Shown here in pieces: positions 1,942-19,177 of a stretch of 19,177 nucleotides of DNA. The position numbers were made by a program, and so were the translations under genes. The stretch covers positions 1 through 19,177 of the forward strand of contig CAZJVP010000095.1 of NCBI GenBank assembly GCA_964549615.1, in the 5' to 3' direction. This DNA is from an uncultured Thermococci archaeon. GTDB taxonomy: Archaea; CAYQAE01; CAYVLA01. Every line of letters starts with the position of its first letter. Position 1 is the first letter of the stretch. Below the pieces are notes generated by a model. That model had not been told where the DNA came from, did no database searches, and saw only the letters and a program-made list of their open reading frames with translations.

Positions 1942-3435
1942 GTAGATCCCTCAAGGGAACGACCCAGGTGTCGGCTGGGCACCCCTCAGTCTCCCTTTCC
2001 GGCCCAAGGCCTTCCGGCGCAGAGTAAAAGATCTTCCGTTTTGCCACATGCCGCGGTCCGGTCGATGGCTATAACCATTCTTCCACAGCCCATCGAATCC
2101 GGGGATCAGAAGGCCACGCAAACTGCAAGAGGCGGGGTCTGAAGGATGCTTTTAAGCTCCGGTGAGGCTGCCATAGCTTGCCTTGTCCCCCGTTTCAGGT
2201 GCCTTTCTCGATCTCAAGGACGACCAACATCGGCATCTGGCCCTGCCGAGCCGACGGAGTCCAACGCCGGGGCGGATGCGGGCGCATCCCGGCCCAAGTT
2301 TCCCTGGCTTGCCGACCTGAACCACCGGCAGCTTGAAGCCGTGACGCAATGCAGCGGCCCGCTTTTGGTCGTTGCCGGCGCTGGGAGCGGGAAGACGCGC
2401 ACGTTGGCCTACCGGGTTGCCTACCTGATCGCGACCGGAACCGACCCCTCCAAGATCCTGCTGCTGACTTTCACGCGCAGGGCGGCCGAAGAGATGCTGC
2501 GTAGGGCCTACGAGATCATGGGTCGGGGCGGGTCATCCGACGGACATGTCTGGGGCGGGACCTTCCACGCGACGGCGAACAGGTTGCTGCGCATCTACGG
2601 CCGGGCAATCGGGCTTGACCCGGAATTCACCGTGATGGACAGGTCGGATGCAGAGGACATGCTCGACCTGATCCGACACGAACTGGGGCTCGACAGCCGT
2701 GATCGGCGTTTCCCTCGCAAGCAGACCTGCATGGACATATACTCGAGGTGCGTCAACGCCTGCGAGCAGCTCGGGGATGTGGTGAAGAGGCACTTCCCAT
2801 GGTGCACTGATTGCGCCGACGACCTGAAACTGCTGTTCCGTCGGTGCGTCGAACGCAAGCAGGAACATAACGTTCTTGATTACGATGATCTGCTACTGTA
2901 CTGGGCCCATCTTGTCTCGGATGAGGCTATCTCCCGCGAGATGGGCTATAGGTTCGACCAGATCCTCGTGGACGAGTACCAGGACACGAACAGGATACAG
3001 TCGCAGATTCTCAGAGGAATGCGGCGGTACAACAAGAACATCATGGCCGTGGGGGACGACGCGCAGAGCATCTACAGCTTCCGGGCCGCAACCGTCCACA
3101 ACATATTGGACTTCCCCAAGCACTTCCCCGGCGCAAGGGTACTGACCCTCGAGCAGAACTACCGCTCCGTGATGCCTATCCTGGAGGCGACAAACTTGGT
3201 CATAGCCCAGGCGAAGGAGCGGTACGCGAAGAACCTCTGGTCGACCCGGAAGGGCGGTTCTCGCCCCAAGCTCGTCACATGCGAGGATGAAGGCGATCAA
3301 GACGAGTTCGTCGTTCGCAGGGTTCTTGAGCACTATGAAGAGGGAATCCCGCTCAGACGCCAAGCCGTTCTATTCAGGGCTGCGCATCTCTCCGATTCCC
3401 TAGAAGTTGAGCTCGCTCGGAGGAACATAGGGTAC

Positions 3436-3440
3436 CACAA
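3436..3440 (+). repeat. Left 5-bp direct repeat CACAA (target duplication or recombination core)
   Basis: Identical to 8138-8142 and located where helicase homology stops. Confidence 0.85.
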
Positions 3441-3481
3441 AGTAGATTTGCCTAAGAAACACCATACCCAAGCAGCCCGCC

Positions 3482-3496
3482 GAAGTGCCTTCGATC
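3482..3496 (+). repeat. Left arm of a 15-bp imperfect inverted repeat (GAAGTGCCTTCGATC)
   Basis: 13/15 identical to the reverse complement of 8120-8134 (GAAATGCCGTCGATC). Confidence 0.75.
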
Positions 3497-3928
3497 TATG
3501 TGCATCTTTCGGGTAGGGATGTGGATGATGCCCTGCTCGGTGTGTACGGGTTGCGCAAGAATGCTGAGGAGAAGCCGCAGCTTTCTCCGAAGGTCTGTCC
3601 CAGGTGCGAGGTTGCCAATGTTTATGATGCCAAGTTCTGTTCAAGGTGTGGCCTGGCTTTGGATGTTAAGGTGGCGCAGGAGCTTGATGCCTTTCTGGCG
3701 GGGATGTCGCGCGAGCAGGTCGTGGCCCAGAACATTGAGCTAGCGGCCAAGGTCAGGGAGTTGACAGAGACCATTGCCAGACTTGAGAAGGGGTACGCCA
3801 AGGTGTCGGGGCAGGTGACGAGGGTTTCGGGCGAGCTGACCAGGGTGTCTGGAGAGTTGGCAGAGCTTAAGAGGGAGGGGCCGTCCGTCTCGGGGGAATC
3901 GGTCAAGAGGCCTGAGAAGACTTCCTAG
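3485..3928 (+). pseudogene. C-terminal fragment of an archaeal-type tyrosine recombinase/integrase (catalytic-Tyr helix, Zn ribbon, coiled coil)
   Basis: PSIYVHLSGRDVDDALLGVYGL followed by CPRC-x10-FCSRC matches the MPxxYVHLSGRDVD plus Zn-ribbon tail of archaeal integrases. The upstream catalytic residues (R, K, HxxR, GW) are missing, and there is an in-frame TAG at 3443-3445. Confidence 0.8.
3800..3862 (+). repeat. Three degenerate 21-bp tandem repeats encoding heptads (KVSGQVT/RVSGELT/RVSGELA)
   Basis: AAGGTGTCGGGGCAGGTGACG, AGGGTTTCGGGCGAGCTGACC, AGGGTGTCTGGAGAGTTGGCA. Confidence 0.8.
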
Positions 3929-4119
3929 CCGGCAGAAGAGCAGACACGGCAACAGGTGCTAGGCCGTCGAGTGTTAGATGTTGATAAGACCGAACCGGGA
4001 GACGGAGGAACTGCGGCCACATCCCTCGTGGTAAGGTGGTACCCTTTGGTAACGGGGGAGTCCCTGAGATAGCTCAGCGCGTCGAAATCCTAAAATAGGG
4101 GATCGCGCGACTCACACAC

Positions 4120-4760
4120 GTGCAGGGCCCTTCAAAGACGCACACCTCCATCGCCAACAAACCGGTTGGTATTCGTCCTCCGGCAATTGGCAGACTCTGT
4201 AAGTTGGCTCTCTGCCTAGCAACACTCACTGCATTTAGCAGTATATGCATGGCCACAGAGGTTAATCTGGGAGATCCAGACGATTCTGACTATGGCTCGT
4301 CCGCGTCGGGTAACGCCCATGCGGAAGTCGACCCATGGCAACCGCATTACATCTATCGGGGCGATGGCTATGCACAGACACGCGGTTCGGGATCTACTGG
4401 TTTATCCAGATATGGTATGCTAGCGAGAGTCAGTTGGATGGCCTAAGTACGGTAGAGGCATGCTATGGGTTTGCATACACTGAATGTTCAACAGGGGACG
4501 GAAATGGCCAAGTCCAGGTGACACTCACCGTATATGAGTGGTCGGGTAGTGATTGGGTTTGGAAAGCCAGCGGCCTGAAGAACTATTATGATAGTTATTC
4601 CGGAGATGAAACATTAAGCGTGAGTTACGAATTCGGTTCTAGCGCATATCGATTCGTTCTACGCACCCAGACCAACTTTGGGGCCTCGGATGGATATGTG
4701 AACGTGTATACGGAGATTGAGTGCGGTGAGTACAAGGGCTATTTCAAGGTGTATGGTTGA
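4120..4760 (+). pseudogene. Secreted beta-rich hypothetical protein with an apparent 1-nt frameshift at 4401-4403
   Basis: ORF 4120-4446 has a signal-like segment (KLALCLATLTAFSSICMA). Adding one T to TTT at 4401-4403 joins it to ORF 4335-4760 (GSTG-FIQIWYASESQ...), giving one Ser/Gly/Tyr/Asp-rich protein. A TATA-like CCTAAAATA lies at 4089-4097. The shift may be a sequencing error. Confidence 0.65.
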
Positions 4761-5015
4761 AGAAAGACCGAATCCCCTGCTGTGCACATTTCAGCCCGTA
4801 GGTGGTCGACGTTCTCCCGCAGCTGGTCTTTGTTTCTTTCAAGGGGTCAAACCCCCTTACAGTGGCTTTTCCATGTGCCTCGGCAAGACACGGCAGGGAA
4901 TGGGGAGGGGAGCTGTCACTGTTACCCAAGAAAGTTGAAGAGAACCGAAAGAGAAGAAGGGAACGAATCACCCGTCATAGATACTGCACGAGGCTAATTT
5001 GGATCGTGTTGGCGC

Positions 5016-7385
5016 ATGTGGAACTGGACGGAGCAGCATGCAACTGCCAGGACTGGTTGTGGGCGTCTTCGGGTAGTGCTAAGGTTGTCTGCTCGAAAAG
5101 GATTTGGTCCTAACTCAGCGGTTCTTGTGTTTCTGCTACTTGTGATCTGGTGTCTCTTTCAGGTCAGTGAGGTATCCGGAAGCCAGCCACCGATTCACGT
5201 GAATCATACTCTTGTCGATGAATATTTCTCGGGAGAGACTCTTGGCATCAGAGTCGTAGGGGTTGGGGACATACTTGGTAGTACCGAGATCATTGTCTGG
5301 GTAGAGTTCCATAATCTTGAGAATCGCAGCAAGAGGATCGAACCCAGATTCCTTACTGCCCGTGTTAATGGCGGAGAGGCAAGGTCGCCTTCTCGGTCTT
5401 GTTGGTCTGTGACTGGTGCGAAAGCCAGTTGTGGCGAGCGGGAATATGTGGAATGGAAGGACCCGGTCGAGAAAATACCTTTTTTGGATCCGTACACAAG
5501 TGTGGCGTGTTGGGTGGTTTTCTGGTTGACCAAGAGCGAGTTCGAGGGTATGAGGAGGCTTGAGGTCACCTATCGCGGCCTTGGCCAACTTGTGGATGTG
5601 GAGATCTCTCCTTTTCGCCGAAGCAGTATGACCTACCTCAAGATGATCAGACCATACGAAGGCCAACAGCTTGCCGCGCTTAGATCCATAAAGTTCCGCC
5701 TGGTGGAACAATACATTCCGTTCGACTGGTCGATCCAGATCGATGGAAGGCTCGTTTTCGCGGGTCGGGCGGAGCCCGAACTACACTGGCTAGGATCGTT
5801 CCAGTTCGCGTGCCCGGTGACGGTCGATGTGCCAACCCATTCGCTGAACCTAGGACCAGGGCAGCACGATCTGGTGGTGTACGCATCTGACGGAACAACC
5901 ACGGAGACCGTTTCAGCAAGCTTTTTCATACAGCCCGGACATGTCGAGGAGCTGAGCACCAAGTGGGTTCTTAACGTGAGTGGCTACTTTTCAGGCATGG
6001 TTTTTGCCAGGAGCGAGCTAAGCGGCCAGACTGTCTATGACATCGATGGAGACGGGTTGAAGGAGATCATCTTCAGCACACTGAGAGGAGCAAGCGGGAG
6101 GCTTTGGTGTTTTGATTCTGGGCTTAGACTGGAATGGGTCTACCCTGAGATGGGTCAGGACGGGCTGCTAGGCCCCACCAGTAAGGTATCCTTGGTGGAT
6201 GTGGACAGTGATGGCGTACACGAGATCTGCTTCACCAGCGGCGGAAGACTCCACATCCTGAACCGAGATGGATATCTCCTGTGGGCATGGGACAATCCGA
6301 GGGGACGTCCTATGCGCGGCGCGCCGCAGGCATATGATATCGATGGAGACGGTTTGGTCGAGTTCTTCTTACAGGATGACCTGGGCTATCTTTTCCGCAT
6401 AGACCATGAAGGAAGCCTGGTGGCCACAACCCAGATCGGCAAAGGAATGATGCAGCCAACAATAGCTGATATCGACGGTGACGGCGAGTACGAGGTTCTG
6501 GCTGCAGGGGGAGACGCCCTGCACTGTTTCAGGGCCAATGACTTCTATGAGAAATGGAGATACCACGCAGCAGCCCTCATGGATGCCAGCCAGATCATCG
6601 TAGCTGATATCGATAGTGACCGCGAGTACGAGGCTCTTACCTGGAGCAGCGCACCTGGAAGCGTGATCTGCGTCTCTCACAGCGGGGAAGAGGTCTGGAG
6701 ATGGCGGCTTCCCGGAGATGGGGTCGTAAGGTTCTGCCAAGCGGTGGGTGATCTCGACAAAGATGGCAGCATGGATATGGTGGTAATGTCGCATGTTGGT
6801 ATCTTCCGCCTCGATGTGGGGGGAGAGTCTCCAGTCCTTAAGTGGGAGGTTAATCTGACTCGGTGGAGTGCCGACGGGCTGATCCCAGATGGGGCCTGGG
6901 CTCACTATTGGTCTTCTAATCAGCTGATAGCGGATATTGATGGTGATGGCCGTCTCGAGGTCCTTCTTCTTGTTCCCTTCCCCATCGTTGTGGATGCAGC
7001 TACAGGTGTTCTCAAGGCCTACTACTTCAACGAGCATCTCTTGACCGGAATACCACGAGACAACGGTGCGTGGTGGGGCGATGTTGACGGAGATGGTCGA
7101 AGTGAGTGGATCTGCGAGCTTATCGGATGGACTCATGCGAAGACGATGACGTACTGTCTTACCTTGGATGGTGTGTTTCCAGCTGAATCTCCTTGGCCGG
7201 AATACTGGCATTCCGCGCTACCGGCATCGGATCAACTGGCTGCCACTTGGCTAACCCTAAAGGGAGCATACTCAAACTCCGTCTGGTTTCCAATAAGGGA
7301 AGGAAGCCAAGGCATAGTAGGAGGCATCGTCTTGACACTGTTAGCAATTACGATGGGGAAGGCAGGAATGGACTGCCGCCGTTAG
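5016..7385 (+). CDS. Cell-surface protein: signal peptide, Ig-like N-terminal region, FG-GAP/VCBS-repeat beta-propeller, C-terminal membrane anchor
   Basis: 789-aa ORF with hydrophobic AVLVFLLLVIWCLF near the N-terminus. Eight DxDxD(G) loops (DIDGDG x4, DVDSDG, DIDSDR, DLDKDG, DVDGDG). It ends in FPIREG plus IVGGIVLTLLAITM. The true start may be slightly downstream. Confidence 0.88.
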   Translation: MWNWTEQHATARTGCGRLRVVLRLSARKGFGPNSAVLVFLLLVIWCLFQVSEVSGSQPPIHVNHTLVDEYFSGETLGIRVVGVGDILGSTEIIVWVEFHNLENRSKRIEPRFLTARVNGGEARSPSRSCWSVTGAKASCGEREYVEWKDPVEKIPFLDPYTSVACWVVFWLTKSEFEGMRRLEVTYRGLGQLVDVEISPFRRSSMTYLKMIRPYEGQQLAALRSIKFRLVEQYIPFDWSIQIDGRLVFAGRAEPELHWLGSFQFACPVTVDVPTHSLNLGPGQHDLVVYASDGTTTETVSASFFIQPGHVEELSTKWVLNVSGYFSGMVFARSELSGQTVYDIDGDGLKEIIFSTLRGASGRLWCFDSGLRLEWVYPEMGQDGLLGPTSKVSLVDVDSDGVHEICFTSGGRLHILNRDGYLLWAWDNPRGRPMRGAPQAYDIDGDGLVEFFLQDDLGYLFRIDHEGSLVATTQIGKGMMQPTIADIDGDGEYEVLAAGGDALHCFRANDFYEKWRYHAAALMDASQIIVADIDSDREYEALTWSSAPGSVICVSHSGEEVWRWRLPGDGVVRFCQAVGDLDKDGSMDMVVMSHVGIFRLDVGGESPVLKWEVNLTRWSADGLIPDGAWAHYWSSNQLIADIDGDGRLEVLLLVPFPIVVDAATGVLKAYYFNEHLLTGIPRDNGAWWGDVDGDGRSEWICELIGWTHAKTMTYCLTLDGVFPAESPWPEYWHSALPASDQLAATWLTLKGAYSNSVWFPIREGSQGIVGGIVLTLLAITMGKAGMDCRR

Positions 7386-7388
7386 TGC

Positions 7389-7409
7389 AACACTCTGAGA
7401 GAGGGTGTT
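7389..7409 (+). terminator. Hairpin directly after the FG-GAP gene stop codon
   Basis: AACACTCT-GAGAG-AGGGTGTT stem with one G-U pair, 4 bp after TAG. There is no strong U tract. Confidence 0.3.
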
Positions 7410-8015
7410 CGGCAGGCTTTCGCTGTTCGGTGCTCTTTCGCCGTTCGGTCGGCCTGAGTCTCGGCCCTCCAGGCAGCTCCAAAGTCGATGCGCGTGAGAG
7501 ACGATGCCTGGGAGACCCAGGACCGAAACGGGTCCTTTGAGCCCCGAGTTCCCCGGTTTCCGGTCTCCGATCTCCGTGGTATGCCGGGCAGGCTTCGCCG
7601 ATATCAGGCTGGTAGGGGAGGAGGATAGGGTCAAGCTAGCCTGTTTTTTCCACGCCAAGCTAGATTCTTGAGGTTTCACTCGGATGTCAGCACAGCCGTG
7701 AGGACACCCCGAGCGGGCTATCCAGCCCATATCGGGGGCTTCCCCAGCCGGGCTGACCTCTTCTTCTGAGCATCAGGCCCCCTTCTCTGAGCTGGCTGAG
7801 ACTGAGCAAGCCAGCCCGACTCCTGAGCTGGGCCCCTCCCCCGAGCCAGCTCCCCCCGACGAAGACCTCTTCGCCACACCTGCACACTACCTCCTGGCTG
7901 AGGTCATGTATGCTGGCCACAGGGCTCAGCTCTCTCAAGGCCTGGGTTATCTCCTGTGAAAGACCTTGGGTTCTGGTGCTCGGCCTCTCTCTTCGCTTTC
8001 CCGCCTGTCACTCAT

Positions 8016-8132
8016 CTATGCAGGAATCACATCTAGTACCTCCATCTTCTCTGCTATCTCCAGGATCTGGGCCAGAGAGGTCTTCCTCTCCCTAGCCCGT
8101 CTTGCCTGGGACCTGATGCGATCGACGGCATT
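8016..8132 (-). pseudogene. Startless helical peptide frame pointing inward from the right end of the element
   Basis: Reads NAVDRIRSQARRARERKTSLAQILEIAEKMEVLDVIPA-stop and is preceded by TGA at the element end. It is amphipathic and protein-like, but no family was recognised. Confidence 0.4.
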
Positions 8133-8134
8133 TC
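8120..8134 (-). repeat. Right arm of the 15-bp imperfect inverted repeat
   Basis: GATCGACGGCATTTC, ending 3 bp inside the right element boundary; pairs with 3482-3496. Confidence 0.75.
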
Positions 8135-8137
8135 ACT

Positions 8138-9012
8138 CACAAGTTCGGCGGCCTGAGGCCTCGAGTCCTCGCATGTCAAGGATGTGGTGGGCCTCCTCCG
8201 CTTGGCCCAGAACCCGCGCGACGTGATGGCCTGGTTCCGCTCGCTGCAGCTTCTGGACGGCATCGGGCCGGCCACTGCCGCACGGGCGCTGGGGCATCTC
8301 TCGTCCCATCGGAGCGAGCCGGGATCCCTGCGTTCCTTTGCAGTGCCTGCCTCGGCCGCGGAATCGCTCGAGGCCCTGGTGAGCACAGTGGAGGATCTCA
8401 ACCAGGTCCGGGAACTGGCGCCGACGTCCAGATCGAAAGAATCCGGTCATTCTACGATCCGCTGTTGATGAAGCACAACGAGAACCCCCTCGTGGGCATC
8501 CGGGACTTGGACAATCTGGAGAGGATAGCTTCGGAGTACCGCTCGGCCACCAGATTCCTGGAAGTCCTCACGCTCGACCCCCGGCCTCGACGAGCGACCT
8601 GGCAGGCGATCCGACAAAGGATGAGGACTGGCTGGTCCTTTCAACCATCCATTCGGCGAAGGGATGGGAGTGGGACGTCGTCTACCTGATCCACGCCGCC
8701 GACGGCTGTCTTCCCTCCGATGTTTCCACAGGGTCGGAGGAGGAGGTCGAGGAGGAACGTCGCTTGGCGTACGTGGCAATGACCCGGGCGAGGGACTTCC
8801 TCTACGTAACTTGGCCCCTCCGCTACTACCACAAGCGCCACAGGTACGGCGATCGGCACAGCTATGCGCAACTCTCGAGGTTCATCACGGAAAGCGTTCG
8901 CGCGAAGTTCGACCAAATCAATTTCGCCAATGTTGGTGCTGATGGGTTCGAGCCGGCCGGTGCTCAAATCGAAGGGGATGTCCGGCTGAAGCTTAGGGCG
9001 ATGTGGGGCTAG
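8138..9012 (+). pseudogene. uvrD: UvrD/REP helicase 3' half with three frameshifts; begins with the right CACAA repeat (8138-8142)
   Basis: HKFGGLR / LESSHVKDVVGLLRLAQNPRD...LDGIGPATA / DVQIERIRSFYDPLL...LTLDP / ASTSDLAG...LSTIHSAKGWEWDVVY (motif V)...EERRLAYVAMTRAR (motif VI). Shifts are near 8159, 8422 and 8578-8582. Confidence 0.92.
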
Positions 9013-9431: not shown

Positions 9432-10679
9432 CTAGGTTCCAGGAGAAGGGGGGAGCCTGGTCACCCCAATCTCCTTATAGACGCGCCGCTTGACCATGAG
9501 GGCATATGTGGCCAGGCCGCAGGCCATGGCAGTTCCGCTCACCGCAGCCCACTCAGTGAGGTAGACCCAGAAAAGCGCCTGCTCCTTCAACCTGACCGAC
9601 TTCGCCTCGATCTCCATCATCATTGCAAGGCATCTGTCAACGGTGTCCTTGGCGGTCGAGTGGTCCTGTTTGAGATACAGGTCCTTGGCGCGGGATCTGA
9701 GTTGGCTGACCTGGTCTAGGTCCATCTCAATGCTCCTAGCAGACGCGCCGAAGGTCTCCGTGAAAGCCACTACCGCGAGAACGAGCTGGGTCCTGATCTG
9801 CATGTCGCGCAGGCCGCGCCTGATGGCATTCGTGAGGAAGATGTCTTGGGGGATCTCCTCTCCGACAAGCCAGTAAAACTGGTTTAGGAAGAAGTCCGGA
9901 TAGAAGTCCCACTGTTGCGCGGTCTGGCCGTCCATCCAGTCCAGGCCGGCCACAGTCGCGGCGGCCCGGCCGAGGCCGTACTCCCTGGTCATTATCGCGT
10001 CTATGTCGGTGTAGCGGAACCACGCTATGGTCTCGGCCCCTGGCCTGGGGACCTCGAGGCCATACACGCCGGCCCCAAAGAGCATGAAGCGATCCACGCC
10101 TGGGAGGTCGACGAGGGGGTTGCCCTTTTCGACCCTGATCCCATCCGGGGCCCGACCGGGCTGCCCCAGCCAGCCGCTGACCGGGATTAGCAGTTCGGGC
10201 ATGTCCGCAGGGAAAACTGGGTAGACAGCGCTCGCCCACCAGTGCTCCATGGGGTAGGCGCCTCCTCCGACTTGGTAATGCAGCTCGTACTTGGCAAGGC
10301 CCGCCCCCTCGTCGCGCACCGCCCGCTCAAACCACCGGTAGTGTTCGGCTTCAAGCATCATCATGGGGTAGTCGGAGAGGATGATCAGGTCGTATCTGGA
10401 CAGGAAGTCCTCGTACCTTCGGGGTATGTAAAGTCGAACGAACCTCTTGAGTGCGTCCGGGCCGCCGAAGGTGAAGGTTCCCTCGTACAGGTTGGCAGGG
10501 AGAGGGTTGTACTCGACCTTGGGGTCTCCGGCCACGACCAGCGGGAGTATGGTCTCGGGGTAATAGGACTCCCCGATGCATAGCACCCGGATCACGCCGG
10601 TTGGGCCGGTCTTGGCCAGGGCTGCGCCCGGGGAGATGACGGCCAACAGTGCGACGGCGGCGAGGGTGCTTCGCTCCAT
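9432..10679 (-). CDS. Secreted, C-terminally membrane-anchored class I GATase-like (DUF1355-like) protein, paralog A
   Basis: Signal peptide, IRVLCIGES, YDLIILSD and REYGLGR motifs, helical stalk, then TM and tail ALFWVYLTEWAAVSGT...LMVKRRVYKEI. ATG 10679 was chosen by alignment with paralog C; the ORF extends to 10715. Confidence 0.85.
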   Translation of the reverse strand: MERSTLAAVALLAVISPGAALAKTGPTGVIRVLCIGESYYPETILPLVVAGDPKVEYNPLPANLYEGTFTFGGPDALKRFVRLYIPRRYEDFLSRYDLIILSDYPMMMLEAEHYRWFERAVRDEGAGLAKYELHYQVGGGAYPMEHWWASAVYPVFPADMPELLIPVSGWLGQPGRAPDGIRVEKGNPLVDLPGVDRFMLFGAGVYGLEVPRPGAETIAWFRYTDIDAIMTREYGLGRAAATVAGLDWMDGQTAQQWDFYPDFFLNQFYWLVGEEIPQDIFLTNAIRRGLRDMQIRTQLVLAVVAFTETFGASARSIEMDLDQVSQLRSRAKDLYLKQDHSTAKDTVDRCLAMMMEIEAKSVRLKEQALFWVYLTEWAAVSGTAMACGLATYALMVKRRVYKEIGVTRLPPSPGT

Positions 10680-10714
10680 GCGAGGCATTACTGCAGCACC
10701 TTTGGCGCTGCTCA

Positions 10715-10724
10715 AATGTATATC
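10715..10724 (-). promoter_or_regulatory. Putative archaeal TATA-like box for paralog A
   Basis: GATATACATT 36 bp upstream of ATG 10679; an equivalent GAATATATTT lies 38 bp upstream of paralog C. Confidence 0.45.
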
Positions 10725-12817: not shown

Positions 12818-14164
12818 CTAACCATCGTTCCCCGAAAGGTGAGATGGTCCGTCCGGTACTCCAAGGCGTGTGGTTGCTACCTCTCGGTACAGCCTGCGGC
12901 GGACCATGAGCGTCCAGAGGACGAACCCGCAGGCAAGGAGGGTCCCGGTAACTGCCACCCACTGCGTGAGGTAGATCCAGAGAAGCGCTCTTTCCTTCAG
13001 GTGCAATGCGTCGTTCGTGAGTGCTGCGAACCTGGACATCGCTGACTCCATGATGTCCTTAGCGGCGGCGAAGTCGCAAGCCCGATACTTGTCGAAGGAT
13101 GTCAGCCTCAGCCTGTCTACCTCATCCATCTGGAGATACACGCCTTGCGTGTTGGCCCCAAACCCATCGATGAAGTCGAGAAGGCCGATCAGCAGCGATC
13201 TTTCCACGTTGTAGTCGAAGTAAAGCCTACGCAGCCGGTGCACCTGGAGGATGTCTTGGGGCAGCGAGGCGCCGGTTGAGTGAAGGAGGATGTTCAGGAA
13301 GACGTCGCCTGCGTACTCGTTTTCGCAGGGGCCAAGCACCGACGACCACCACCGGGCATCGAGGTCGTCCGCCACGGCCCAGAAGATGCCGCCCGTCGGC
13401 CCGACCCTCCACGAGATCAGCCAGTCGGTTTCCTTTCCGAGGCCGAGTGACATCATCGCCTCTGCCACGACTTTCAACCTGCCCCAGACCGTTGCACCCT
13501 GTCTTGTGGTTAGATGCGAGAACTGGGATCCCTGGATCGTCTCAATCCCCAAGGGCTTGAAGGCCGACAATACCGGGGGATCATCCTTGACGATCCTGAT
13601 GGTGAAGACGGAAGAATCAGCCTTCATCCTCTCGCTGAGCTCGACTGGTAGGATCTCCTTCAGCACTGCGTTCGACCAACTCGGGTACACCGACCCGCCT
13701 GGGTTGGATAGGCCCCCTCCCATCGTGACCAACGCTCCCAGCCCGTTCTCAACTGCGTATTTCATGTCGGCTATCTGAGACGGGGTGAATGGATCCAACC
13801 GTCCGTCGGGGAAGGCCAGGAAATCGAAGCCTTCAGTCAAGGCCTCTCTTGTCTTGGGGAAATAGAGGCGGACGGCTCTCTGCCAGTCGAGATCACTGCC
13901 ACCAACTGAGATGCCCTTGGTTGGGACGAGGACGTAATCGACGAGTGGATCCGCATCGAACCATAGCGAGATCGGGCAATCCCCCGGCATCACCTGGCCT
14001 ATCGCCAGTACGCGGATCTGACCTGCGGCGAGGACGGCCGGTGAGAGAAGTAGGAGGGAGAGAGGCGTCCAGGCGAGGCGCGCTGAAATTGAAATCCTGC
14101 GACGTCTCAAACCGGTCCAGATTTTTTCAGTCATCAGGCGAGATACCATCCATCTAGGCTCCAA
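12818..14164 (-). CDS. Secreted, C-terminally anchored GATase/DUF1355-like protein, paralog B
   Basis: IRVLAIGQ, RLYFPKT, LPQD, FIDGFGAN and LKERALLWIYLTQWVAVTGT...LMVRRRLYREV are shared with paralogs A and C. The real start may be ATG 14134. Confidence 0.85.
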   Translation of the reverse strand: MEPRWMVSRLMTEKIWTGLRRRRISISARLAWTPLSLLLLSPAVLAAGQIRVLAIGQVMPGDCPISLWFDADPLVDYVLVPTKGISVGGSDLDWQRAVRLYFPKTREALTEGFDFLAFPDGRLDPFTPSQIADMKYAVENGLGALVTMGGGLSNPGGSVYPSWSNAVLKEILPVELSERMKADSSVFTIRIVKDDPPVLSAFKPLGIETIQGSQFSHLTTRQGATVWGRLKVVAEAMMSLGLGKETDWLISWRVGPTGGIFWAVADDLDARWWSSVLGPCENEYAGDVFLNILLHSTGASLPQDILQVHRLRRLYFDYNVERSLLIGLLDFIDGFGANTQGVYLQMDEVDRLRLTSFDKYRACDFAAAKDIMESAMSRFAALTNDALHLKERALLWIYLTQWVAVTGTLLACGFVLWTLMVRRRLYREVATTRLGVPDGPSHLSGNDG

Positions 14165-14969: not shown

Positions 14970-16193
14970 CTAGCCCAGGGGGGTGAGCCTCGTCACGGAG
15001 ACCTCCTTGTACATGCGGCGCCTCACCATGAGGGTGTAGATCGCCAGACCGCAGATCATGGTGGTTCCGCTCACCGCAGCCCATTCTATCACGTAGATCA
15101 AGAGAAGAGCCCGGTCCTTGAGTTTCAGGGATTTGCCCTCGATCTCCGCCATTAGGGCGAGACATCTTTCGACCGTGTTCCTGGCCTCCGAGTAGTCCTG
15201 CTTGAGGTAGAGGTCCTTGACCTGGGACCGGAGCTGGCTGACCTCCTTTAGATCCATCTCAATGCTCCTCCCCGATGCGCCGAACGTTTCCGTGAAGGCA
15301 ATGACGGCCAAGACAAGTTGGGTGCGGATCTGCATATCGCGCAGCCCCCTTCTGATCGCATTGGTGAGGAAGACGTCCTGGGGGATGTCCTCTCCCACAA
15401 GCCAATAGAACTGGTTCAGGAAGAAGTCGGGGTAGAAGTCCCACTCCTGGGTGGTCTTGCTGTCCATCCAATCCAGGCCAGGCACGGTCGCCGCGGCCCG
15501 GCCCAGGCCGTATTCGCGGGTCATGATCGCGTCTATCTCGGTGCCCCGGAACCAGGCTATGGTCTTGGCTCCCGGCCTGGGCACCTCGAGCCCATATCGC
15601 CCATATGCGCCGGCGCCGAAGAGCATGAAGCGATCCGCGCCCGGGAGGTCGACGAGGGGGTTGCCCTTCTCGATCCTGACTCCGTCGGGGAGAACCGGGG
15701 TCAGGCGCTCGGGAAGGTCGGCAGGGAAGACCGGGTAGACCGCGCTTGCCCACCAGTCCTCCAATGGATAGCCGCCCCCTGTGACCTTGTAGCTCAGCTC
15801 GTACGTCGCGAGGCCTGCGGCCTCCTCGCGCACCGCTCGCTCGAACCATCGGTAGTGGTCGGTCTCTAGGAAGATCATGGGGTAGTCGGACAGGATGATC
15901 AGGTCGTACCTCAAGATGAAGTCCTCGTACCTTCGGGGTATGTAGAGCCGCGTAAGCCTCCTGAGGGCGTCCGGCCCAGCGAACGTGAAGGTCGCCTCGT
16001 AGATGTTTCCGGGAAGAGGGTTGTACTCCAGTTTGGGATCGCCGTCCAGGAGCAGTGGGAGGACGGTCTCGGGGTGGTATGACTCGCCGATGCACAGCAC
16101 CCGGATCACCCCGGTCGGTCCAGTCTTCGCCAGGGTTGGGCTCGAAGTAAGGATGGCCAAGAATGCGGCAGTGGCGAGGGTCCTCCGGTTCAT
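14970..16193 (-). CDS. Secreted, C-terminally anchored GATase/DUF1355-like protein, paralog C (close duplicate of A)
   Basis: 407 aa with long runs identical to paralog A (AKTGPTGVIRVLCIGESY, WDFYPDFFLNQFYWLVGE, FLTNAIRRGLRDMQIRTQLVLAV). Confidence 0.88.
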   Translation of the reverse strand: MNRRTLATAAFLAILTSSPTLAKTGPTGVIRVLCIGESYHPETVLPLLLDGDPKLEYNPLPGNIYEATFTFAGPDALRRLTRLYIPRRYEDFILRYDLIILSDYPMIFLETDHYRWFERAVREEAAGLATYELSYKVTGGGYPLEDWWASAVYPVFPADLPERLTPVLPDGVRIEKGNPLVDLPGADRFMLFGAGAYGRYGLEVPRPGAKTIAWFRGTEIDAIMTREYGLGRAAATVPGLDWMDSKTTQEWDFYPDFFLNQFYWLVGEDIPQDVFLTNAIRRGLRDMQIRTQLVLAVIAFTETFGASGRSIEMDLKEVSQLRSQVKDLYLKQDYSEARNTVERCLALMAEIEGKSLKLKDRALLLIYVIEWAAVSGTTMICGLAIYTLMVRRRMYKEVSVTRLTPLG

Positions 16194-17778: not shown

Positions 17779-18159
17779 ATGTCGTGGATGTGGTTTCGGC
17801 GGTTCAGGGTCAGCAATCCATGGAGCTTCTCGTTCTTGATGTTCTTTTGTGGCACGATGCTTGGCGGCGTTCTGTATCTGATCTGGCATCCGCTCCTCCA
17901 GGCATACATGGTCGGCCTGGCCGTGGCCTTTGCGCTACACGAGTTCCGGAAGCGGCTGTTCCGGGATCGGTCCGGCTTGGTTTGGCTGCCCTTCCTAGCG
18001 GGGCTGGCGTTCATCATCCTGTGGCCGGTCCGCGAGGACATACGTGGGCTGGGCTTCATCATCTGGATGTTCGCGGGCGTGTTCATCCTGAAATGGCAGA
18101 GAAGAAGAACTTCAGCAGCCGGCGATGCACAGGTCGCCGTGGCTCAGCAACCTTCCTGA
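17779..18159 (+). CDS. Small integral membrane protein (about 4 TM helices)
   Basis: Four hydrophobic segments separated by basic loops (RKRLFRDR, KWQRRR); ends about 20 bp upstream of the next gene. Confidence 0.75.
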   Translation: MSWMWFRRFRVSNPWSFSFLMFFCGTMLGGVLYLIWHPLLQAYMVGLAVAFALHEFRKRLFRDRSGLVWLPFLAGLAFIILWPVREDIRGLGFIIWMFAGVFILKWQRRRTSAAGDAQVAVAQQPS

Positions 18160-18179
18160 GGAAGGGGCGGTTGGGTTCA

Positions 18180-19177
18180 ATGGGATTGCACTCCGCAAGG
18201 GCACTCGGAGTCTCGATCGTCGCTCTCTTGTGCCTCAGCGGTGCTAGGGGCAAGGCCATAGACCTGCTCTACATATCTAGAGGCCTTGCCCAGGGTTCGA
18301 TCACCGACAAGATGCTCGGTGCCGACCCCGCGATCAACGTCCGCCCAGTGCCGATGCCGGGCCACTACTCGATCGGGTCCCTCGGCATGGATGCCGAGGT
18401 GATAAACCGGGCGATGAGGATCTACATGCCGAGGAACTACCAGCATCTGTTGGACAACTTCGACCTGGCCACCTTGCATGAGGCACCCTGCGGCGCGCCG
18501 GACTACCAGGCCGTCTACTTCGATGCAAAGTGGATGGACTGGTTCATCAAGGCGGTCGAGTCAGAAGGCTTCCACCTCTCCATGTGGGGAGGCGATGCAT
18601 CGTGGGGAGGCGAGAAGGGGGGTTTCTACCTCTCGTGGGGCGACACCATCATGGCAGCCATACTTCCATTCGAGTGCATACCCCGCTTCACCCACGGAAT
18701 CTCAATGCCGCACAGGATCAGGTTCCTGGAGAAGGGGAACCGCTTGGCCAACCTTCCCTGGAGCCAGGCGGGCCCGGTGGAACTCATGAACGAGGTCGTG
18801 CCCAAGGCGGGCTGCGTTGTCGTGGCGGAGGCGTACATTGGCGACTTCACCAATCCATGGATCGGCTACTGGCGGTACGGGAAGGGCAAGGTAACTGGCG
18901 AGACCCAGATATTCGGCAGCAGGGGCACGACCAACAGGATGATGCTGTGGGACTGGTACCAGGACTTCCTCATCTACCTGACCTATTTCGCGGCGGACAA
19001 GGAGATACCGGCCGACCTCTATCGGGCGCACAGGATCAGGGAGGAGATAAACACCCACATCGCAAAGGCCTCGATGCTGATCTCGCTTCTGGAGTTCGTC
19101 GAGCGCTTTGGCGCGAACACCGCAAGGCTCTACCGAGACCTGGACGCGATAGAGAAGGTGGAGAAGCAGGCCGAGCA
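18180..19177 (+). CDS. Secreted GATase/DUF1355-like protein, paralog D (runs off the window end; missing from the supplied ORF track)
   Basis: Translated by hand from ATG 18180 with no stop: MGLHSARALGVSIVALLCLSGARG...ADPAI...RIYMPRNYQHLLDNFDL...WFIKAVESEG...YWRYGKGKV...WDWYQDF...EIPADL...LEFVERFGANT, matching paralogs A-C. Confidence 0.88.
   Translation, partial: MGLHSARALGVSIVALLCLSGARGKAIDLLYISRGLAQGSITDKMLGADPAINVRPVPMPGHYSIGSLGMDAEVINRAMRIYMPRNYQHLLDNFDLATLHEAPCGAPDYQAVYFDAKWMDWFIKAVESEGFHLSMWGGDASWGGEKGGFYLSWGDTIMAAILPFECIPRFTHGISMPHRIRFLEKGNRLANLPWSQAGPVELMNEVVPKAGCVVVAEAYIGDFTNPWIGYWRYGKGKVTGETQIFGSRGTTNRMMLWDWYQDFLIYLTYFAADKEIPADLYRAHRIREEINTHIAKASMLISLLEFVERFGANTARLYRDLDAIEKVEKQAE

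Follow-up and report, generated by a model that had tools for sequence, protein, structure and literature searches.

A helicase-splitting insert in a hot-spring archaeon as the probable remnant of a tRNA-linked integrase element

What placed 4697 bp of low-GC DNA in the middle of an archaeal helicase gene, between two copies of the pentanucleotide CACAA? The gene lies in a 19,177-nt stretch of DNA (the window, to which all coordinates refer) from the genome of a hot-spring archaeon, G000, of a Hadarchaeota-labelled genus; the collection searched contains just five genomes of its phylum (G000–G004), one of which, G001, belongs to the same genus. We find that a truncated tyrosine integrase gene of a widespread archaeal family lies just inside the left junction, that members of this family sit behind tRNA genes, and that the helicase site mimics their junction. 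The reading that we favour, with a probability of roughly 0.6, is that an ordinary integrase-driven element, normally linked to tRNA genes, entered the helicase gene off-target at a secondary attachment site, and that the insert is what remains of it after decay.

The interrupted helicase gene and its empty counterpart

The features of the locus are as follows.

2146–3440, plus strand: 5' portion of a UvrD/PcrA helicase gene of bacterial type; 431 codons without a frameshift
3436–3440, no strand: left CACAA copy, the presumed shared crossover core; doubles as helicase codons His-Lys and is single in the G001 empty site
3441–8137, plus strand: the insert, 4697 bp, probably a decayed integrative element, delimited by the repeats, GC content and the G001 empty site
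3441–3485, plus strand: left arm, 45 nt, collinear with the natural tRNA-to-integrase spacer at ~60% identity overall
3486–3928, plus strand: C-terminal 147 codons of a tyrosine integrase, covering the region of the catalytic Tyr (SIYVHLSG), the zinc ribbon and a coiled tail
3929–3988, plus strand: conserved 60 nt past the integrase stop, the end of an "integrase module" common to loci L011 and L012
4120–4760 (4120–4446 and 4335–4760), plus strand: two overlapping small ORFs with no Pfam, PHROG or NCBIfam match
5016–7385, plus strand: intact cargo gene for an FG-GAP/VCBS beta-propeller protein of 789 aa (Pfam PF13517 at 4e-19, PF25292 and PF01839)
7386–8137, no strand: right arm, no convincing gene and no family matches
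8138–8142, no strand: right CACAA copy, seen in the sequence and in the G001 comparison
8143–9012, plus strand: remaining 3' portion of the helicase gene, pseudogenised, with three or more frame changes (~8157, 8400–8426 and 8578)

The insert starts AGTAGATTTGCC and finishes GGCATTTCACT, and interrupts the helicase gene mid-way, at codon 430 of ~716; its GC content is 50–56% across 4000–7400, compared with ~60% in the flanks. G001 carries an uninterrupted orthologue of 716 aa that reads ..RRNIPYHK/YGGLRF.. across the insertion point, with one CACAA there against two in the window, a direct repeat that is very short for a recombination core. This comparison confirms the observation of a first-pass annotation, made from the sequence of the window, that a CACAA-flanked insert splits a UvrD helicase. 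That annotation also held that the gene rejoins precisely once the insert and one repeat are removed: both junctions are indeed exact to the base relative to G001, but the gene is not made whole again, as a 2-nt gap lies 15 bases beyond the junction and two more frame changes follow near 8400–8426 and 8578.

The helicase 5' part is 71% identical in amino acid sequence to the G001 orthologue, and its ORF continues 25 codons into the insert, to a stop at 3516. It matches the Pfam UvrD-helicase domain (PF00580) at 1e-63 and the UvrD_C profile (PF13361) over positions 2–98, the latter resuming downstream of the insert at profile positions 295–347; it also matches the NCBIfam PcrA/UvrD models, although, the query being half a protein, its scores stay under the curated cut-offs. 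A tblastn search with the G001 helicase protein follows the 3' part through frames 3, 2 and 1, in agreement with the DNA alignment. The split gene is the only UvrD-like gene detectable in the genome, and itself looks acquired from bacteria. An intact helicase, 87% identical, is on record as P0122.

The integrase fragment and its family

The first-pass annotation saw no recognisable intact recombinase inside the insert. This is literally true, yet a truncated tyrosine integrase gene is present, 45 nt inside the left junction and reading inward, in the native orientation of the natural copies. The fragment aligns without gaps to residues 292–443 of an integrase of this family, P0001, at 86% amino acid identity, and is 97.3% identical in nucleotide sequence to the full 443-aa integrase gene on G001 contig C91; ~290 upstream codons (~880 bp) are missing from the insert, and Pfam detects only the zinc ribbon in what is left. 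From the full catalytic set (Arg, His-x-x-Arg, Tyr), the Tyr region alone remains, and deletion of the part that bears HKLRHSR in P0001 makes the insert a dead member of the integrase family. The N-terminal part of the integrase is absent from the window and from the genome (tblastn with P0001, P0002 and P0009, E up to 10), and G000 likewise contains no full integrase of the family.

Full-length members have ~395–443 aa, with a XerD-like catalytic domain followed by a C-terminal zinc ribbon, and are widespread in archaea, those returned by the protein search being labelled Nitrososphaerales / Nitrososphaeria and Bathyarchaeota / Bathyarchaeia; a scan of viral contigs gives one distant relative at 28% identity. 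We inspected 16 loci whose integrases are 58–100% identical to P0001, comprising six close-kin loci (G001 C91, C241 and C79; G000 C64; L011; L012) and ten others (L013, L014, L015, L017, L018, L022, L120, L121, L123 and L124); since L018 and L124 appear to be one sequence, 15 are distinct. In every one of the 16, the integrase is preceded by a tRNA 3' end and a junction motif, and the tRNA in the close kin is tRNA-Thr. The natural order is tRNA, junction motif ACC-NN-AA(A)-GTATAAA, inward-reading integrase gene and then variable cargo. Of the loci scanned with ARAGORN, 8 of 20 from metagenomes and 4 of 17 from genomes receive a tRNA call next to the integrase; the misses are loci at contig ends, loci with split tRNAs or kin whose identity is ≤49%. 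The close kin keep whole integrase genes while integrated, and G001 has two or more copies of the family's integrase.

The insert preserves this arrangement at its left end, where the integrase gene adjoins the junction and reads inward from behind a junction motif. Each of five semi-global alignments of the left arm to natural spacers starts with base 1 of the insert, and the block GAAACACCATACCCAAG matches L012 at 15 of 17 aligned columns. The motif is degenerate, with GTAGATT in the window against GTATAAA in the natural copies, and their TATA-like box is not conserved; the significance of the alignment is modest, as 0.7% of genome 45-mers and 4.3% of shuffles score as high. Identity jumps at 3485/3486, from ~60% in the left arm to 97% in the integrase fragment, and this sharp change indicates that the two do not have a simple common history; the break could reflect a mosaic structure, a patch of conversion or divergence of the arm. 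On the far side of the integrase gene, the insert, L011 and L012 all cease to be homologous at one and the same base.

Beyond this point the insert carries its cargo, whose ORFs give nothing in PHROGs or NCBIfam. The two small ORFs may represent a single secreted protein that a frameshift has disrupted; an Atlas search with the 141-aa ORF returns weak leads only, and a decayed relative lies at G000 C87:360–553. The 789-aa FG-GAP protein has hydrophobic segments at its N and C termini, as judged by eye, and paralogues at 44–52% amino acid identity on G000 C5, C16, C48, C37, C41 and C7. The right arm has conserved pieces at 7422–7564, 7951–8009 and 8038–8114, with short pieces matching G001 C136 (83%), G001 C185 (88%) and G000 C18 (79%), and a 38-codon ORF with no start codon on the minus strand (8019–8132). 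No transposase or Cas1 is found in the insert with Pfam, PHROGs or NCBIfam; the window contains no tRNA, and an Rfam scan of 3300–8300 gives no real match in the insert.

The helicase site as a look-alike junction, and competing explanations

The target of insertion is a helicase ORF that mimics the natural junction, in place of a tRNA gene, and this marks it as a secondary attachment site. A 9-nt word, 10 nt long in the G001 empty site, is common to the helicase site and the junction that G001 C79 naturally carries at tRNA-Thr(GGT), while only 21 of 20,000 random 20-mers from the genome match any of six natural junctions over at least 9 nt (P ~0.001). CACAA is part of the natural junction motif, and the insert begins at the matching junction position. 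The first-pass annotation's suggestion of CACAA as a tyrosine-recombinase crossover core thus gains support from three sides: the integrase fragment 45 nt away, the motif-matched start and the mimicry of the junction by the target. The ends of the insert are weakly inverted, as had also been noted; 9 of 12 positions match with one gap, and the anchored score is reached by 1.7% of random pairs (P 0.017).

These observations are consistent with a history in which the ancestor was a small integrative element with a tyrosine integrase, normally integrated directly 3' of a tRNA gene. A circular copy would have recombined with the look-alike site in the helicase gene, at codons Tyr-His-Lys, by conservative site-specific recombination at a secondary site, with no duplication made by a transposase; as CACAA is common to both partners and lies in the crossover region, it would then appear on both sides of the insert. 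The helicase, once split, would have decayed downstream of the insert, and the element would have lost ~880 bp of its integrase gene and so become fixed in place, with the FG-GAP surface-protein gene surviving intact. Points against this reading include the size of the core, which at 5 bp (7 with one indel) is shorter than the cores in the published systems cited below, the low identity and modest alignment score of the left arm, and the lack of a full family integrase in G000.

We sought the right-hand site of the natural elements in several ways. Scans of 8 loci and of 14 loci, several with 10 kb of downstream sequence, reveal no direct repeat of the tRNA region of at least 12 nt downstream, as fits a short core, and scans for shorter cores give ambiguous matches only. 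A 53-nt repeat in L124 belongs to a different element upstream of the tRNA, and the candidate right sites of L120 and L121, which fall within a conserved coding block, show no significant likeness to the insert's right end (P 0.76). The G000 flanks of tRNA-Thr genes give no informative match to an attR in G001. The right end of the insert is not significantly similar to the tRNA 3' end (P ~0.10); its likeness to the tRNA 5' half reaches P 0.03 for one of four targets and 0.6–0.9 for the other three, which we treat as chance, and the half-site symmetry of the natural junctions (7–8 of 11) does not exceed the scanning null. No natural attR or attP of the family emerges from the loci scanned, and the true crossover point is therefore one that we infer, as we do the agency of the integrase and the order of events. 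It is possible, and we put it forward tentatively, that the family crosses over in the trailer just behind the tRNA, ahead of its own TATA-like box and outside the tRNA body, with a core of ~5–9 bp (ACC-NN-AA), the integrase perhaps being supplied in trans by a co-resident element. Were this so, the family would be prone to look-alike sites in ordinary genes, and would here have destroyed the host's only UvrD-type helicase.

The insert might instead have arrived with no integrase at work. Illegitimate, microhomology-mediated capture of a linear or circular fragment of a tRNA-linked element, through end joining or template switching where the helicase gene was broken, would leave CACAA as the microhomology, and five bases are a typical length for such a tract. 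Truncation of the integrase gene fits this account, as do the right end, with its start-less 38-codon ORF and no recognisable attachment features, and the identity break at 3485/3486, a sign that rearrangement that is not site-specific did happen in the element. However, both junctions restore the helicase to the base with 5 bp duplicated, which follows directly from one reciprocal crossover with a circle and would be a matter of luck in two end joinings; moreover, the left boundary falls on the natural junction motif that the target mimics. We consider such a capture unlikely.

The first-pass annotation proposed a possibly undescribed class of non-autonomous cargo elements, possessing recombination sites only and moved in trans into protein-coding genes. 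The lack of an intact recombinase and the weak, non-random terminal inverted repeat (P 0.017) are compatible with that proposal, and in a host such as G001 the two or more family integrases could act in trans. Yet the remains of a known-family integrase gene stand in their native position, and sister insertions, sought in G000 with both 30- or 50-nt ends, are lacking, as neither end is found besides in the insert itself. In G001–G003, the sole match near an end is to the integrase fragment (3486–3970, on G001 C91), and the outermost left 45 nt and the terminal right stretch are unmatched; a pattern scan of G000–G004 for the natural left arm yields nothing beyond three known G001 sites, and plasmid and phage collections give no match. 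A new class is thus very improbable. A co-resident element of the same family may have mobilised the insert in trans, but the data can be explained without this, and the insert reveals no new kind of mobile element.

The 5-bp direct repeat and weakly inverted ends would also be expected of a DDE-type transposon or IS derivative that made a 5-bp target duplication and whose transposase was lost or is encoded elsewhere. We give this little credence, as no insert ORF has a transposase domain, neither the 30- nor the 50-nt ends have a second copy in the genome, and the repeat belongs to the integrase junction motif and is not an arbitrary target. Finally, because the genome is a draft in 104 contigs assembled from a metagenome, the helicase contig could in principle be a chimera with unrelated DNA, but this is exceedingly unlikely: the helicase halves are in the correct order and orientation, a 13,868-nt Logan contig of run X1 (probably the source sample, and probably assembled from the same reads) spans 3000–8600 and both junctions with 0 differences and even depth, and the 456-aa read-through helicase ORF that runs into the insert (P0121) is recorded in the protein collection on two contigs, the longer of 119 kb, the last two findings together making an artefact of one assembler unlikely. 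The contigs of this one run show the occupied form, and contigs alone cannot reveal rare empty-site or circular forms.

Significance and relation to known systems

If the secondary-site reading is correct, this locus provides a base-resolved archaeal integrase element caught at a secondary site, with an orthologous empty site for comparison, in a poorly sampled lineage, and illustrates how a host gene can be inactivated by an element of this sort, which afterwards stays fixed in place with its cargo preserved. The junction motif, for its part, gives a testable feature for a widespread and uncharacterised integrase family.

Tn7- and Mu-like DDE transposons make 5-bp target duplications and have TG..CA ends. 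The insert resembles them in its 5-bp direct repeat and departs from them in having no transposase and no TG..CA ends, in occurring as a single copy and in the location of its repeat within an integrase junction motif. Casposons use a Cas1-type integrase, carry long terminal inverted repeats and generate a target duplication of ~14–15 bp, whereas the insert gives no Cas1 match in Pfam and its repeat measures 5 bp.

Phage lambda and SSV1 can integrate at secondary attachment sites, and such events can hinder excision and permanently capture the element (reviewed in PMC8371274); the helicase insert is alike in representing probable off-target recombination at a partial match to the cognate core, with the differences that it is known from its sequence alone and that we infer the cognate crossover point of its family. 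In the "suicidal" integrases of SSV type, att lies inside the gene and the N-terminal part ends up at the opposite end of the element, on the same strand (PMC7253208; PMC8371274). The helicase insert is likewise an archaeal element with a partial integrase gene beside its left junction; unlike those, its N-terminal integrase part is nowhere in the genome, and its close kin keep whole genes while integrated. Tyrosine-integrase iMGEs of thaumarchaea, including cryptic integrated elements, have att sites down to 8 bp, and 14 of 68 lie in protein-coding genes, with others in sites that include tRNA genes; as Krupovic et al. 2019 (PMC6563490) describe them, these insertions sit in 3'-distal gene ends and tend to keep the ORF. 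Unlike these, the present insert lies mid-gene, has killed the gene that it entered, has a core of 5 bp and carries a truncated integrase; like them, it is a small archaeal element with a tyrosine integrase and a very short att.

The interrupted helicase gene

The helicase gene, of UvrD/PcrA type, is split by 4697 bp lying between two copies of CACAA (3436-3440 and 8138-8142); the left end of this insert starts AGTAGATTTGCC and its right end finishes GGCATTTCACT.

The insert and the gene that it interrupts
2146-3440, helicase 5' part: open 431-codon stretch, Pfam UvrD-helicase (1e-63), UvrD_C profile positions 2-98
3485-3928, ORF translating ..PSIYVHLSGRDV.., then a CxxC..CxxC zinc ribbon
4120-4760, two overlapping small ORFs, no assigned function
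5016-7385, intact FG-GAP beta-propeller gene, 789 aa, with paralogues elsewhere in the genome
about 750 bp, right arm, no convincing gene
8143-9012, helicase 3' part: UvrD_C profile positions 295-347 resume downstream of the insert

The CACAA pair, the split UvrD domains, the empty site in a same-genus genome (G001), a GC content that drops to 50-56% over 4000-7400, a Logan contig that covers 3000-8600 with zero differences and comes from a hot-spring metagenome, probably the source run, and a read-through ORF from the helicase 5' part into the insert recorded on a 119-kb contig together establish that the insertion is real and precise. The draft genome, G000 (3.2 Mb, 60% GC), comprises 104 contigs, one of which, C95 (19,177 bp), is the entire window; the read-level evidence is assembled contigs from one run, and we regard misassembly as improbable.

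The G001 orthologue is uninterrupted (716 aa) and carries a single CACAA at the exact position of the insert, so that the site proposed in the first-pass annotation is precise, but removing the insert does not restore the reading frame as supposed there, with the 3' part aligning to G001 in three frames. Three frame changes fall within the 870 nt of the 3' part versus none within 1293 nt of the 5' part, where about 4.5 would be expected at the same rate (Poisson P about 0.012); this absence may reflect chance, or selection still acting on the 5' fragment. A search of G000 found no second UvrD-like gene. The helicase looks like a bacterial import, given its 65-70% identity to PcrA/UvrD-type proteins of Kiritimatiellae, Verrucomicrobia, Lentisphaerae and Planctomycetota (PVC-group bacteria), and of 41 archaeal genomes related to this one only 11 contain any match. 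The rRNA of G000 scores best against archaeal SSU and LSU models.

The window also holds four paralogues of an expanded protein family.

Paralogues of the expanded family
9432-10715, minus strand
12818-14164, minus strand
14970-16193, minus strand
17784-19175, plus strand

These proteins are about 410-450 aa long and share 28-75% amino acid identity among the three tested; by eye, the N terminus looks signal-like and a hydrophobic helix lies at the C terminus; each of three queries gives about 135 tblastn matches across G000 at E<1e-10. No Pfam or NCBIfam family was assigned to the four, save a weak PF07090 match (E 0.003) for 17784-19175.

An integrase fragment and its family at tRNA genes

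The first-pass annotation, which recognised no intact recombinase inside the insert, overlooked an integrase fragment: the ORF at 3485-3928 is 86% identical to residues 292-443 of a full 443-aa tyrosine integrase (P0001). With an E-value limit of 0.01, a search for longer proteins returns 153 relatives, P0001 being the best; nearly all of the best 120 are 346-443 aa long and carry Pfam Phage_integrase. The DNA match is sharply bounded, from 3486 to 3988 (60 nt beyond the stop codon), with 91% and 87% identity to L011 and L012, two loci of the family, and 97.3% to a full gene on G001 contig C91. An SSV-type split integrase is ruled out because G000 lacks an N-terminal integrase part, the sole match being a 25%-identical recombinase on contig C3 that is probably the chromosomal Xer. 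The fragment differs from the G001 copy by 2.7%, with no indel, versus about 27% DNA difference between host genes of the two genomes; the element, or its patch from 3486 onward, was thus shared by both lineages well after their divergence.

Scans with P0001 identified 71 metagenome and 25 genome loci. We inspected 16 loci, 15 of them distinct, with integrases that are 58-100% identical to P0001. All 16 have a tRNA gene 3' end, in the same orientation, and a conserved motif within about 40-60 nt before the integrase start. The motif reads ACC-NN-AA(A)-GTATAAA, with the ACC, AA and GTATAAA blocks conserved and NN variable, and bases 1-3 after the tRNA are CCA or TTA. The family uses tRNAs for Thr, Pro, Gly, His, Glu and Asp, and close kin occupy all three tRNA-Thr isoacceptors.

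Occupied tRNA-Thr genes
CGT: G001 C91, L012
TGT: L011, G001 C241, relic on G000 C64
GGT: relic on G001 C79

Downstream, no direct repeat of 12 nt or longer from the tRNA region was detected, including at loci where 10 kb of sequence follows, and no natural attR or attP was found; the lack of such a repeat, together with the conserved motif, suggests that the core used by the family may be short and lie in the tRNA trailer.

G000 holds a second relic of the element family at C64:2279-2456, where tRNA-Thr(TGT) is followed by a diverged spacer and some 20 codons of integrase before the sequence switches abruptly to a DapA-like gene. In G001 C241 the DapA gene lies on the opposite side of the tRNA in opposite orientation; this implies a rearrangement with one breakpoint inside the integrase gene. 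At locus L124, a perfect 53-nt direct repeat (1431-1483 and 9851-9903) of the promoter and 5' half of tRNA-Thr(TGT) encloses 8.4 kb with a Prim-Pol replicase gene, just upstream of a family integrase; a single tRNA gene thus seems to serve two different elements, one in each half, and small ORFs abutting both repeats might be a split integrase. A second junction-like site, GGTAACCAAAAAGTAGAATT, lies at L120:1966, about 410 nt past the integrase stop, and is closer to the left junction of the insert than is the usual GTATAAA form, a hint that arms vary or that sites occur in tandem. ARAGORN calls only 26 tRNA genes in G000, rated 99.5% complete, some with odd anticodons; the tRNA-Thr CGT and TGT genes (87-90 nt) seem to contain introns.

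Junctions and origin of the insert

Three independent observations tie the left junction to the natural junction. The first base of the insert falls at the same natural-spacer position in five of five semi-global alignments, whose score is attained by 0.7% of 45-mers drawn at random from the genome and by 4.3% of shuffles; in one block just ahead of the expected start codon, 15 of 17 aligned columns match L012. The pre-insertion helicase site and the G001 C79 natural junction have a 9-nt word, ACCACAAGT, in common, and the empty site of G001 itself shares 10 nt with that junction; only 0.1% of random 20-mers share at least 9 nt with any of six natural junctions. CACAA is the NN-AA portion of the motif rather than a random target, and its proposed role as a recombinase core is supported. 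G000 contains 98 copies of the word ACCACAAG and therefore many pseudo-sites. The weak inversion of the ends noted earlier is likewise above chance (P 0.017); no analogous symmetry exceeds chance in natural junctions.

We favor an integrase-mediated insertion at a secondary site, with a probability of about 0.6. If a circle and the helicase gene underwent reciprocal crossover inside the shared bases, the product would be exactly the observed structure, with the target intact to the base and shared bases flanking both sides. The estimate is held there because the right end does not significantly resemble a tRNA end or anything in natural loci, the core is shorter than the cited minimum, and the left arm breaks at 3485/3486. 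There, identity shifts sharply from about 60% to natural spacers (left 45 nt) to 97% to the G001 gene, so that more than a simple deletion took place, whether a mosaic, a conversion patch or divergence of the arm. Capture of a fragment through microhomology is unlikely. A transposon-like origin is less likely still, as is the earlier proposal of a possibly undescribed class of transposase-less cargo elements mobilised in trans; no transposase, Cas1 or phage families were found in the insert (Pfam, PHROGs, NCBIfam).

Paralogues of the FG-GAP cargo (44-52% amino acid identity) lie on G000 contigs C5, C7 and C37 (<3 kb) and C16, C41 and C48, and the very short contigs suggest that these surface-protein loci are repeated or variable and so break up the assembly. 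Short, conserved, non-coding pieces of the right arm (7951-8009, 7422-7564 and 8038-8114) match G001 C185:4507-4565 (88%; there an arm of a long inverted repeat), G001 C136:7016-7154 (83%) and G000 C18:50530-50602 (79%).

Comparison with known integrated elements

The phylum is represented by five genomes in the collection searched, and the accessible literature on Hadarchaeota/Hadesarchaea yielded no paper devoted to its integrases or mobile elements. Published accounts describe att sites down to 8 bp in thaumarchaeal integrated elements, with 39 of 68 elements in tRNA genes, 15 intergenic and 14 in 3' ends of protein genes (PMC6563490), and record that lambda and SSV1 have secondary attachment sites and that integration at a secondary site can trap an element (PMC8371274). 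The core shared by the insert is shorter than the 8-bp minimum cited there (PMC6563490; PMC8371274). The insert belongs to a known sort of element; only the very short core, the target in mid-gene and the clean comparison with an empty site set it apart.
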